A stretch of 63,740 nucleotides of DNA, counting the filler, from Octopus bimaculoides (lineage: Eukaryota), in the NCBI RefSeq assembly GCF_001194135.2. It is 6 parts of 6 records of this genome, joined end to end, with 100 filler letters (N's around TTAATTAATTAA, not from the genome) between each part and the next. Parts side by side here need not be neighbours in the genome. Positions count along the whole stretch, not along the records: positions 1 to 21,850 come from NC_068984.1; positions 21,951 to 28,935 come from NC_068982.1; positions 29,036 to 42,167 come from NC_068995.1; positions 42,268 to 55,051 come from NC_069001.1; 2 more parts are not named here. The stretch is one strand, 5' to 3'. Below are positions 17,225-50,063 of this stretch, in pieces (within the stretch, counting starts at the first letter, position 1; every line of letters starts with the position of its first letter). The notes below the pieces were generated by a model. The model made no database searches. It had not been told where the DNA came from and saw nothing but the letters and a program-made list of their open reading frames with translations. Made by a program: the position numbers and the translations under genes.

Positions 17225-17528
17225 ATAGGAAATGTAAAATACATTTTCAATTTATTCATTCACCCCGACCACGAGCTGGCATACACAGGTGCTTACAATT
17301 ATCAAGTATTACCTCTAACATTTACATATATATATATATTGATAGAAAAGGTAAGCCAACAAAAGAAAGAAAGAGACCTCGATATTATGTAAATAGAAGA
17401 ATTTATCTGTAAATAATATGTGACAATTATTCGGTAGCCATGATAAAACTCCGAGTTTCGGATGTCGGGGTGGAAACCCACGCCGCCATCTCTTCAGTTA
17501 TCTGGCCATCGATGGCTAGATAACTGAA
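17225..17528 (-). mobile_element. Putative Penelope-like pseudo-LTR / retrozyme-like fragment
   Basis: Contains a type I hammerhead motif and a 36-bp 5' palindrome; assignment inferred from the known association of such motifs with PLEs. Confidence 0.45.
17437..17506 (-). ncRNA. Type I hammerhead ribozyme motif (core intact, GUU triplet)
   Basis: On -: GCCA GATAA CTGAAGA [GATG G CGG C GTGG GTTT CCAC C CCG A CATC C] GAAA CTC G GAGT T TTATC A TGGC; helix I 5+4 bp, helix III ACTC-G-GAGT. Confidence 0.7.
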
Positions 17529-18119
17529 TGTGTGTAAATAACATGTATGTGTGTGTGTGTGTGTGTGTGTGCATGCATGTGTGTGTGTGTGTGTGTGATA
17601 ATAAATAGTGATTGTTGAGAAATATCCTCAGTTTTAAATTAAGCTTGTCACTCTGAAAAGAATGGTAAATTCTATCTAAAATATACTGAACGTTTATTTT
17701 GATTAAACATAATGAAACAAACACCTGGTAAAATATATAAAACAGTGGTCTCTGAATTTTATTGACCTTTCATCATTTTTTACTGTCTTGCGTTTTGGTT
17801 TCATTAGAGGAAAACATGGCTACTGAACTTCATGATTCATGTACAGAACTGTGAATCATTATTTGACTTATTGAAGTTAGAAGGTAATTTATAAAACAGA
17901 ATTCCTACATGCTCCATTCATGAAATGCTCGATGTATCAAATTACATTGTCCAAAGGTATTTGGCTTTGTCTTTATTACTCAAATTCGTGGCACTGGTCA
18001 CTAAGTTACTTTTCTTCGCTTATTTTTGTAAGACATTTTGTTAGACACAAACTCAAGCACACACTCGCACATATATATTTGCAAATATACATATATTTAA
18101 CTCTCTCTGTTTATATATA

Positions 18120-18334
18120 TATGAGGGGGTGTTGAGAAGATCATCACTTTGGGTACAAGAAAATAGAGGAGGATCAGTTAATTGTGATTTTTTTCAACAT
18201 ATCCACCTCTCTCTGATTCACACACTTATTGCAGCAGTCCTTCAGTTTTTCTAAGCCCTATCAAAAAACTTGGAAGGTTGGGTCACCAACCAGGCCTTTT
18301 GTGACACCCTTAAAGCCAAGAACTTTCCAGCATC
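18120..18334. mobile_element. mariner-derived MITE with transposase C-terminal remnant
   Basis: Imperfect TIRs (GAGGGGGTGTTGAGAAG / RC GATGCTGGAAAGTTC); the minus strand gives GLEKLKDCCNKCVNQR followed by frameshifted GYVEK. Confidence 0.5.
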
Positions 18335-18792
18335 TACTTAGTTCATGTTTAAACTTTATTCAACTAATATATTATTGTATACACATTTGCACAAATTCTG
18401 AAAAAATATGTATATGTATATATACACACACACACGCACACACATATATATGCATACATATATATATCCCTCACTATTTGTTTTGTTTTGTTATATATAT
18501 ATATATAACAAAATAGATCCACATATATCACCATCAACTGCAGCATTATCATCATCTAGCATCCATTTTCCATTCTGGCTTGGATTGGATGGTTTGAGAG
18601 ACAAGGTTTCTATTGCTGGATGCCCTTCCTAATACCAACCACTTTATAGAGTGTACTAGCCATTTTATTCTTTGTGGCACCAAGTAACTTGCAAGACAAG
18701 ACAAAGTCCTTTGACTGAAGAGAGTAGTTTTGAGGTGGGGGCTTTGTGCCAGTCAGTGAAAGGTGAAAAGAATTGCAGAGGGAATTGCAGGC

Positions 18793-18895
18793 AGTGAGCT
18801 AGCAGAGACGTTAGCATGCCGGGCGAAATGCTTAGTGGTATTTCGTCTGCCGTTACGTTCTGAGTTCAAATTCCACCGAGGTCGACTTTGCCTTT
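18793..18895 (+). mobile_element. SINE family C head
   Basis: GGCAGTGAGCTAGCAGAGACGTTAGCATGCCGGGCGAAATGCTTAG...GAGTTCAAATTCC. Confidence 0.8.
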
Positions 18896-19043
18896 CGAAC
18901 AGAAACATAAAGCACAAAAAAACGGACTCTTTTACCGACAACAGAATGAACACATAGGAAAGCAGATGAGCCACTTATGGAATTTTTCTTTCATCAGCTG
19001 CCTCTATTCTAAACTAGGCGTTTCGAAGATGAGGCAATATATT

Positions 19044-19111
<68 letters not shown>

Positions 19112-19254
19112 CAGCCAGACAGAGAGACAGAGAGACAAACAGACAGACAGACAGATAGACAGACAGATAAATAGATAGATAGAGATATAGATAGATAGAT
19201 TATGAGTTCTATTTTTTGTTTGCATCCCCAGAGTTATATGTAAATATACACAAA

Positions 19255-19997
19255 TATCATAATCATCATCATCATTATCATCATCATTTAATTTGCATGT
19301 TCCATGCTGGCATGAGCCCAAGGACTGCCCTATGCTCCAGTGTCTACTTTGGCATTGTTCCTTCTGCCTGATGGTCTTCTTCTTAATACCAACCACTTTA
19401 CAGCATGAACTGGGTGCTATTTCCATGCAACCAGCATAGGTGAGATTGCCATGCAGCTTGTAAAACTACAACCCCCCCCCCCCAAAAAAAAGAGGTAGCT
19501 TTGTGCTAGGAAAGGAAGGGTTAAAGCATGAGGGAAGGGGTCAAAGTAGAACAAGCTCCTTGCTGTTGAGGAGCTACGTAGTTGCATTTTGGAAGAGCAG
19601 GCGAGGGTGTGATTGGGGTGGAGTGGGAAAGAGATAAATATAGCGATGATGAGGTATGTGGGTGGACCCTCAAGTTATGAGGTGAGCAGAACTGAATAGG
19701 AGCAGAAGAACCAAGAGTATGGGTGGGTAAAGGTTGCAAGAGTGTATGGTGAGGTGACAGATGGAGAGTGGGTGAGGGGATGAATGTGATGAATGAAGAA
19801 CAAATGTTGAGTGGATGATAAAGAAGGGAGGTAGGGAAGAGTAGGTGACAACTGTAGAGGTTGGATAGGGTTGAGAGGTGGATGTAGTGAATGGTGGACA
19901 AGGGGTAGAGGATGACTAATGATGCATGGATATGAAAAGTAGCAGAATAGTAAAGATGGCACAGTAGACCAAGGAAAGATGAGAGAGAAAGAGAGAT

Positions 19998-20029
<32 letters not shown>

Positions 20030-20290
20030 AGTGGGGAGTGATCGGGTAGTTTGCAAGAGTGTGCGGGGTGGGAGAAAGGCAGGCATAATGCATGGGGAGA
20101 GTAAGAGACATGGTGGTGGGATGATTAGGTAGCTCTATGGGAATGGTCACTGTAAAATGTGGGTGGAGAGGACGGATATCAAGTGAAATGATTCTGGGTA
20201 GTGAGAAAAATTAGTAGTGTCAAGGAAAAGCTAAACTTAAAGAGATGACAGGTGGTGAGGGTGTTGCAAGGGAGAAATTTGGCCAATTGC
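19255..20290 (-). mobile_element. RTE-tailed element with a long pyrimidine-rich body (degenerate)
   Basis: RTE-type tail in reverse at 19255-19470 followed by a purine-rich (+) tract; similar arrangement at 52605-53200. Further RTE tails at 18548-18690 (-), 20340-20560 (-), 21360-21525 (+), 44900-45155 (+). Confidence 0.35.
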
Positions 20291-47839: not shown

Positions 47840-48012
47840 AAATTATTATACACACTTTACAAGCGATATTTTTCTCCATGGACAAATGAAGTGGATATGT
47901 AACTATGTGGTCTCATTTGAGTTCAGATTAGAAACGAAACCAAGTGAACCAAAACCTTCTATTTCTGTGTATATTGAGTTAAAGTCTGTCAGTAGTCTAT
48001 GGATCCATTAAG
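47840..48012 (-). repeat. Right arm of the 173-bp inverted repeat
   Basis: See 45288-45460. Confidence 0.9.
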
Positions 48013-48356
48013 GTGAAAATTGTTGCTGTTTCTGTAGTATTTAAGAGACTGAAAGTAGGAGACTTCTTTCTGAACAAGATGGAACTCTATCACAGGGTGC
48101 ACCATCCAATTAACTGTAGCACTTATATATAATTATAATAATAATTATTAAATAATTATTACCAAAAGAAATTAGTCTTCTTTCTCTCAAAGTGAAGATA
48201 ATTTCAAATTATCAAGAATCTATTATCGTTCATATTTAATATAACTTTATTAATCTTTGTTGTCCAAATTCATGTAGGATCAAGACATGCATATATATTT
48301 ATATATTATTTACATTATTATATAATTGAATGCCACACATCCATTTCCAAGTAAGT

Positions 48357-48427
<71 letters not shown>

Positions 48428-48431
<4 letters not shown>

Positions 48432-48815
48432 GCACAGGCATGGCTGTGTGGTATGAAGTTTGCTTCCCAACCACATGGTTCCAAATTCAGTCCCACTGCA
48501 TGGCATCTTGTACAAGTGTCTACTACAATAGCCCCCTCCCAACCAAAGCCTTGTGAGAGAATTTGGTAGACAGAAACTAATAGAAGCTTGTATACATATA
48601 CACATATATATGCATATATATTTATGAGTGTGTGTGTCTTTGTGTTTGCAATTTTCCCCCACCACTGCTTGACAACTGACGCTGGTGTGAAGAGACTAAT
48701 AAAATAAATACTAGGCTTACAAATAATAAGTCCTGGGATTGATTTTTTCAACCATAAAACCATTTAAGATGGTGCTCCAGCATGACTGCAGTCAAATGAC
48801 TGAAACATGTAAAAG
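48428..48815 (+). mobile_element. SINE family B, full length, diverged
   Basis: Head, microsatellite and tail all present; another head at 47220-47390 (-) and a tail at 50215-50445 (+). Confidence 0.8.
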
Positions 48816-48832
48816 AATAAGCGCATAAGAAC

Positions 48833-49260
48833 TGTTCAGAGGCTTATTGGTAACAAGGAGCTTCTCGCTGATAGTGAAAGGTAGAGTGTATGGCGCTTGT
48901 GTAAAAAGAGCAGTACTACATGGTCACGAAATGTGAAAGCAGGGGACATTTGAAGGCTTCAAAGAAATGAAGCTTGTATGCAGAGTGCATGTACATCAAA
49001 GTGTAACTGTGCTGATAAAAATATTGCCGAACATAAAAGGCATCAGATGTAGTGTGTTGGTATGGTTGTGTAATGCATATGGGTGAGGACAGATGCATAA
49101 AGAAGCACCAATCCTTAAATGTAGATGAAGCCTGTCGAAGAGAAAAACACAGGGAGACAGAGGATGAAATGGTGGAAAAGGACCTTCAGATGTTGAGCCT
49201 CGTAGAAGAGATGACAAAGGATCAGGATGATGGTGATTGCTGTGTTTGAGAATGTCTGTC
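48833..49260 (+). pseudogene. RTE LINE ORF2 C-terminal relic
   Basis: KGRVYGACVKRAVLHG...WYGCVMHMGEDRCIKKHQSLNVD...VEKDLQMLSLVEEMTKDQD matches the RTE post-RT region; frameshifted. Confidence 0.75.
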
Positions 49261-49876
49261 CATTTAAGTAAAACTGAGGCCCCAAAGGCAAGTCATTTAT
49301 GTCTATGCCCCTTTCCTACACAATTCAGTTCACCTTCCTAACAACCTTTCCTCCCTCCACTCATGTTCCTCACTTACTGCTTAAATCTCCTTTCTATATC
49401 CCCCTCTTCTTTCACATTCTTGCAAACATACCTATGTACAACTTGTACTTGATGAGTCTCTGTCCCGCTCTTTCTCATTTCTTTTGCAATCTTAAGAAAT
49501 CATTTATGTGCCTTTTGGCTGAGATCATATATTGCATGTGTGTGTGTAATACTCAGAATCATGCAAACACATATATACTTGCAATACATGCAAGAGATCA
49601 CACATTCAACCAGTTAAAATGCTGTCTACTACTTACTTCAATGCCGTTGTATTTATCAGTATATGTCACTTTCTTACAGTATTCTGTTTGACTTTGTTTG
49701 AAAGCTCTCTGACACTTATTGCATTCCTTAACAAGTTACCTATGTTTGTGAAATTATTGTGAGGCACATAGCATGTAACACCTTGTATAAATGGTTGGTA
49801 ATCTTACTTAATTTAAGTTAATTCATGCTGACATGTTCTGGGTTTATAAACTGTCACACATAAAATAGTATTAGTA

Positions 49877-49907
<31 letters not shown>

Positions 49908-50025
49908 ACACACACAAACACACGCAGGTGAGCACATGAGTGCAAAACTAGATAGAGAAAATAGTACTCAAATACCAAAGGTAGAGTAATATATTTTTTA
50001 TTAAATCTGCAAAATTATCACTGAG

Positions 50026-50063
50026 CTGTTACTCAGAGTTTCACATTCCTGTTTGTCAGACAG
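50026..50063 (-). ncRNA. Minimal type I hammerhead-like motif, core mutated (CTGACAA)
   Basis: On -: CTGT CTGACAA ACA GGAA TGT GAAA CTC T GAG T A ACAG; helix I CTGT/ACAG, helix III ACTC-T-GAGT, GUA triplet. Confidence 0.55.

Follow-up and report, generated by a model that had tools for sequence, protein, structure and literature searches.

Hammerhead motifs on one strand of an Octopus bimaculoides window as probable relics of Penelope-like elements

Introduction

We asked why hammerhead-shaped ribozyme motifs recur on a single strand of a stretch of the Octopus bimaculoides genome, and what kind of element could have left them there. The window, i.e., the whole stretch of DNA analyzed, comprises 63,740 nucleotides, filler included, and consists of six parts of six records of assembly GCF_001194135.2 joined end to end. 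An initial annotation had placed six minimal type I hammerheads on the minus strand, at 17437, 27209, 37051, 39890, 46945 and 50026, and none on the plus strand. It had read them as relics of several ribozyme-bearing retroelement families, whose shared direction could reflect the purging of self-cleaving sequences from a plus-strand gene. All six motifs were located at these positions, on the minus strand, and are referred to here as H1 to H6. We consider it likely that they are pseudo-long terminal repeat (pLTR) fragments of several independently inserted families of Penelope-like elements (PLEs), that they are now probably inert, and that chance accounts for their common direction.

Detection of the motifs

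Both strands were scanned with a scoring scheme, and the top six matches were exactly H1 to H6, all on the minus strand (Table 1). The best match on the plus strand scored 18.0, below all six. The scheme was devised with the motifs already known, and a first scan was without H4 owing to a palindrome filter, which was relaxed in the final scan. We observed six, four and three motifs at scores of at least 19, 22 and 25, respectively, against 0.25, 0.056 and 0.013 matches per strand in local dinucleotide shuffles (232 strands). A descriptor search gave two matches on the minus strand with an intact core, four with one core mismatch and seven with two, and none on the plus strand at any level. The means in 100 locally shuffled strands were 0.01, 0.08 and 1.3, respectively, and none of these strands reached the observed counts. 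The strict descriptor missed H4 because helix I of this motif is bulged.

One of the two reversed-sequence controls gave a false match with a score of 28.0; therefore, the shuffles may understate the background. The scores of H3 and H6 lie near the background even by the shuffles, whereas the other four motifs clearly exceed them. That is, H1, H2, H4 and H5 are firm, and H3 and H6 are uncertain. Among matches to the same core-plus-helix-III strings in other data, none of 20 from metagenomes and none of 129 from viruses can form helices I and II, and none resembles the motif flanks. The Rfam hammerhead models gave no match at gathering score in the window (among the best 150 of 216 rows) and none at E ≤ 10 around H1, H4 and H5. 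These models cover canonical forms and are not known to cover PLE variants.

Table 1. Coordinates of the motifs and associated features along the window
Feature	Position	Strand	Score	Description
H1	17434..17510	-	37.7	Type I hammerhead, core intact
H2	27208..27296	-	23.4	Hammerhead relic, A6G (CUGGGGA), GUA triplet
H3	37051..37098	-	19.0	Weak hammerhead-like relic, U4C (CCGAUGA) and U16.1C
H4	39890..39934	-	26.0	Intact core, CUC triplet
H5	46938..47012	-	36.9	Intact core, C3 at 46997, AUA triplet ending at 46949
H6	50017..50070	-	19.0	Hammerhead-like relic, G8A (CUGACAA)
36-nt palindrome	17493..17528			18-bp arms, one mismatch, no loop; at the 5' end of H1
42-nt palindrome	27390..27431			21-bp arms; about 100 nt 5' of H2, adjoins a (TA)n tract
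Putative target-site duplication, upstream copy	17533..17546			14 bp, 13/14 identical
Putative target-site duplication, downstream copy	17408..17421			Bounds a 111-nt insert, 17422-17532
RVT_1 fragment	54607-55050	+		Pfam E 2.5e-13; 4.5 kb from H6
Coding exon, the only gene shown in the window	7055..8071	-		Acceptor 8072, donor 7054; open reading frame 7972-7073

Structure of the motifs

By pairing rules, all six motifs are able to fold helices I and II about the core. The common core of CUGANGA, GAAA and UH described initially is present in H1, H4 and H5; it is altered in H2, H3 and H6, where the G8A change of H6 is of the CG-to-CA type. In H1, C3 lies at 17497, G12 at 17459 and the GUU cleavage triplet ends at 17447; helix I can reach 11 bp if a single bulge is allowed, helix III is ACUC-G-GAGU, and an additional C precedes GAAA. 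H2 has a long helix II and a perfectly palindromic helix III, ACGAUCGU. H3 has a helix II of 7 bp and a helix III with the core CAGCUG. H4 combines an extra G after A9, followed by G10.1-C11.1, with a helix II of 6 bp, a bulged helix I of 5 bp and an imperfect palindrome, AGAACU; it is the best fit to the published PLE consensus among the six. Helix III of H5 is a 10-nt perfect palindrome, AUCGAUCGAU, and its helix I has a competing alternative pairing of 11 bp, which includes three G-U pairs that can form on the minus strand only. In H6, helix II has 3 bp and helix III is ACUC-U-GAGU.

The helix III palindrome is perfect in H2 and H5, perfect apart from the central base in H1 and H6, and imperfect by a single mismatch in H3 and H4. 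Helix III self-duplexes had energies from -7.9 to -12.6 kcal/mol, with the exception of H4 (+1.4). An unpaired nucleotide flanks helix II on both sides in H2, H3 and H5, on the 3' side only in H1, and on neither side in H6; the extra nucleotide after A9 with a clean G10.1-C11.1 pair is confined to H4.

The motifs had been described as unrelated. Flank alignment showed that the six are not copies of one another within the window, and to that extent the description stood; it did not extend to the motifs themselves, pairs of which share strings. GAAACUCNGAGU is common to H1 (17437) and H6 (50026), whose GAAA/helix III strings match at 11/12 nt, and the central palindrome CGAUCG is common to H2 (27209) and H5 (46945). 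As a separate observation, TGGCYA occurs on both sides of the ribozyme in H1 and H5, lengthening helix I. At about 37170-37330, 100-250 nt 5' of H3, a sequence is imperfectly duplicated in tandem, with a period near 72 nt.

Predicted competing folds dominate in H1, H5 and H6. The cost of the constrained active fold relative to the ensemble was 15.2, 10.5 and 9.1 kcal/mol in these three and 4.0, 3.0 and 1.0 kcal/mol in H2, H3 and H4, respectively, all rough values from a folding model without tertiary contacts. Whole-motif folding z-scores were modest (-0.8 to -2.5). The palindrome at H1 overlaps helix I and CUGAA, and the active fold of H1 is predicted to be blocked by this palindrome, by about 15 kcal/mol.

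Signs of retro-insertion

The window contains seven palindromes with arms of at least 11 bp, and the two non-microsatellite palindromes with arms of at least 14 bp are those at H1 and H2. The zones beside the six cores account for 1.7% of all non-N bases, and the probability that both palindromes coincide with them is approximately 3e-4, with thresholds chosen post hoc. The palindrome at H2 is likely the 5' junction of an insert. A microRNA reading of the H1 palindrome (likeness to mir-101 and mir-9, E 0.017-2.4, far below gathering score) was rejected, as a hairpin of 36 nt is too short for a precursor.

H1 shows a layout of duplication, palindrome, hammerhead, short tail and duplication. Random sites equaled the direct-repeat score of H1 in 3/1000 trials with tight geometry and in 8% of 300 trials with loose geometry.

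We searched 244 stop-to-stop open reading frames (ORFs) of at least 48 aa beyond position 8400 against Pfam. One match, RVT_1, was above the cut-off, and two were below. Judged by its motifs, the RVT_1 fragment resembles a reverse transcriptase of the non-LTR type.

Origin of the motifs

PLE hammerheads with a short palindromic helix III act as dimers (PMC4209133; PMC6765202), and most of them are single heterogeneous relics (PMC4209133). The octopus motifs share with the PLE pLTR hammerheads the type I order, a short helix I, a helix III whose palindrome suits dimer formation, flanks rich in A and U, and occurrence as heterogeneous single copies (PMC4209133). H4 is like them also in its extra nucleotide after A9 and its G10.1-C11.1 pair, and H2 and H5 are similar to the variants with longer palindromes in D. 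willistoni, Saccoglossus and Aedes, whose palindromic helix III reaches 10 nt (PMC4209133). The Penelope pLTRs of Adineta vaga have 5' palindromes of 18 bp and 38 bp and target-site duplications of 8-10 bp (PMC3846280), and PLE insertions typically include inverted copies with 5' truncations (Craig et al. 2021, PMC8557442). The 36-nt and 42-nt palindromes on the 5' side, the 14-bp direct repeat at H1 and the (TA)n tract adjoining the H2 palindrome are features of the same kind (PMC3846280; PMC8557442). Moreover, octopus PLEs are plentiful and diverse, with 31 recently active families (PMC13282606; PMC8967140). We favor PLE relics because the motif type matches that of PMC4209133, two palindromes lie on the 5' side and one duplication resembles a target-site duplication; the same evidence bears out the initial reading as relics of ribozyme-bearing retroelements. 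We infer that the motifs belong to PLE families.

Two hammerheads in a tandem transcript of the parent element would pair through their short palindromic helix III and so cleave. The layout seen at H1 would result if the element inserted by target-primed reverse transcription, was truncated at its 5' end and gained a short inverted junction copy. Each copy is now alone, with H2, H3 and H6 mutated in the core and H1 predicted to be blocked. On structural grounds, copies from different families could form no active dimer, because this would require cross-pairing of their helix I strands, which do not match. Heterodimers of H1 with H6 or of H2 with H5 within one precursor mRNA were rejected, as their helix I strands do not pair and H2 and H6 are core mutants. 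A single PLE hammerhead motif showed no cleavage in vitro, and dimers cleaved weakly (PMC4209133). We accordingly predict that lone hammerheads of this dimer type are inactive.

Several results weigh against this assignment to PLEs. Target-site duplications were not found at H2, H4, H5 or H6, and the repeats at H3 do not exceed the background. Neither the motifs nor their flanks recurred in the window or in 149 metagenome and viral loci. The 244 ORFs contained no remnant of a PLE reverse transcriptase or GIY-YIG domain, although short frameshifted remnants may escape such a set; thus, unlike the published pLTR hammerheads, none of the six motifs has a PLE ORF beside it. The G10.1-C11.1 pair next to GAAA is conserved in the published PLE hammerhead consensus (PMC4209133), whereas a clean pair adjoining GAAA is missing in H1, H2, H3 and H5 (4/6), which have an unpaired or mismatched nucleotide directly 5' of GAAA. 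Unlike the Adineta pLTRs, the insert at H1 is just 111 nt, and the 14-bp duplication is longer and present at 1/6 motifs (PMC3846280). Finally, a 6:0 skew is still a 1-in-32 event. Cephalopods are absent from the aligned species (Fig. S3) and Table S1 of PMC4209133.

The alternative that survives best is a mixed set, in which H1, H2, H4 and H5 are real, some of them contributed by carriers other than PLEs (SINE-like or retrozyme units), and H3, H6 or both resemble hammerheads by chance. The shuffle-level scores of H3 and H6 and the reversed control at 28.0 speak for it, as do the lack of a PLE ORF near the motifs and the helix I of H1, H5 and H6, which can be extended past a bulge or loop as in canonical type I hammerheads. 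Non-LTR retrozymes and newt satellite 2 likewise carry type I hammerheads in animal genomes, including those of molluscs, with an extended helix I in some (PMC7229834). However, tandem units of 150-450 nt were not found in the window, there is no recognizable contact between loops 1 and 2, H6 shares its GAAA/helix III string with H1, and palindromic junctions are a PLE feature; we therefore regard a mixed set as unlikely. A retrozyme or newt-satellite array as such was rejected, as no motif flank repeats within the window.

Shared orientation and the host gene

The two-sided chance of the skew was computed as 0.031 for 6:0, in agreement with the initial estimate of about 1 in 32, and falls to 0.125 for the 4:0 of the firm motifs; these values precede any correction for the many windows scanned, and the window was chosen by eye. 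If the motifs are inert PLE relics, there is little cleavage to select against; therefore, chance is the simplest account of the skew, and we conclude that the shared minus orientation is probably due to chance.

The host gene bears on this question. The ORF in the coding exon of Table 1 has 92% identity to Octopus sinensis LOC115211115 and 59% to an Argonauta protein. It encodes 299-300 aa in one internal exon, with introns in both untranslated regions (UTRs) and the donor 18 nt past the stop. The product has no Pfam family and just three homologues, including those of Octopus sinensis and Argonauta; its body is of low complexity and its C-terminal 45 aa are conserved. Contigs presumed to be RNA match exactly 7055-8071 and then diverge at both ends (86 and 104 nt in one run), and a second run gave 215 nt of unlike sequence past 8071; the raw-read run was approximately 2-6-fold and unstranded. 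The strand of the gene was therefore assigned from the AG/GT signals and the ORF. Its intron opens at 8072, toward the motifs, and the downstream exon end was not found in the window.

The CpG/GpC ratio was 0.26-0.31 over 1-22 kb, 0.66-0.82 over 22-42 kb, 0.27 over 42-56 kb and 0.95 beyond. CpG depletion can be read as gene-body methylation. The 8-22 kb interval is T-rich on the minus strand (AT skew +0.066, CI 0.027-0.107), and the 38.4-42 kb interval is T-rich on the plus strand. H1 probably lies sense in an intron of the minus-strand gene, because minus-strand splicing occurs at 8071/8072 and the 8-22 kb interval is CpG-depleted and minus-T-rich. The end of CpG depletion at about 22 kb, its return at 42-56 kb and the plus-T-rich 38.4-42 kb interval suggest more than one unit, and we infer that H5 and H6 lie in a second transcription unit, which could run in either direction. 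No coding exon was found in the depleted 42-56 kb block, and no plus-strand gene was shown by the 244 ORFs and Pfam; the plus-strand ORF at 24643-25299 has no homologue found, which is weak evidence.

Several CT- or GC-rich stretches are candidate first exons or 5' UTRs, namely 34928-35540 (minus), 24555-25300 (plus) and 22950-23130; donor-like sites accompany the first two. Promoter-like spots that show no CpG depletion, at 38340-38400 and 56500-56730, carry CGGAAG or CCGGAA motifs, which we take to be ETS-like, and bracket the depleted 42-56 kb block.

HH9 and HH10 are ultraconserved monomer-type ribozymes of amniote introns. H1 resembles them in being probably intronic and sense (PMC6765202), whereas the octopus motifs are of the dimer type and partly mutated. 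In a second alternative, the motifs are sense in one long minus-strand transcript, i.e., in 5' introns of the LOC115211115-like gene, through biased insertion or as retained weak intronic cleavers. Such a transcript is suggested by the minus-strand gene, whose exon sequence extends at least 215 nt further 5' past 8071, by the composition of 8-22 kb, which fits H1 sense in an intron, by minus-strand donor-like sites at about 34928, 46531 and 38157, and by the sense intronic hammerheads of amniotes (PMC6765202). However, the upstream exon of the gene was not located, and the CpG and T-richness pattern along the window points to at least two units. Three of the six cores also carry mutations, and the palindrome at H1 is predicted to prevent its active fold. 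In addition, the strand splits of four SINE-like repeat families in the window (13:7, 5:7, 7:4 and 5:5; the remaining rows overlap these or hold three copies) show no clear bias. We consider this explanation of the shared direction quite improbable.

The purging proposed initially, in which selection acted against self-cleavers in sense orientation within a plus-strand gene across the region, is very improbable: the lack of plus-strand matches above 18.0, a possible plus-strand gene body over H4 to H6 (plus-T-rich 38.4-42 kb and CpG-depleted 42-56 kb) and the reported antisense bias of mammalian intronic transposons would fit it, but no plus-strand exon was shown, a minus-strand gene was found instead, H1 is probably sense in its intron, and single motifs of this type are predicted to be inactive and lack cleavage in vitro (PMC4209133), so that there is little to purge.

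A 173-nt inverted pair with 93% identity, at 45288-45460 and 47840-48012, encloses H5, and these are its only two copies in the window. The pair may represent a DNA transposon or a segment that can invert, and no clear target duplication was found for it. The orientation of H5 may therefore not reflect an independent insertion.

Other repeats

Microsatellites, SINE-like repeats and N gaps are abundant in the window. A 370-nt repeat occurs in three co-oriented copies (61918-62288, 63136-63530 and 4591-4980) with a tRNA-like head, judged by eye, and is probably a SINE. We presume, from their motifs and with no tool match, that the sequences at about 36500-36900 (plus) and 31199-31477 (minus) are mariner-like remnants, that 42498-42821 (plus) is Dong/R4-like and that about 54160-54400 (minus) is Helitron-like.

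Implications

No paper on octopus hammerheads was found in the literature covered, which excluded most subscription papers; the word "ribozyme" is absent from the main text of the 2026 O. vulgaris repeat annotation (PMC13282606), and octopus is unmentioned in the accessible part of a 2026 ribozyme preprint. The result extends PLE-type hammerheads to octopus. A bolder proposal, which we hold to be unlikely, is that octopus genomes contain an undescribed and very large set of variant dimer-type hammerheads, with an unpaired base before GAAA and palindromic "barcodes" of 6-8 nt, with a genome-wide orientation relative to host transcription. At three intact cores in 58.5 kb, a genome would hold more than 100,000 if the window were typical. 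The orientation question alone has wider value, and a single window is insufficient to answer it. If the proposal is true, orientation would be a direct test of the cleavage of lone PLE hammerheads in vivo; a genome-wide sense/antisense bias in introns would test, from sequence alone and at low cost, whether hammerheads of the dimer type cleave in cells when alone.

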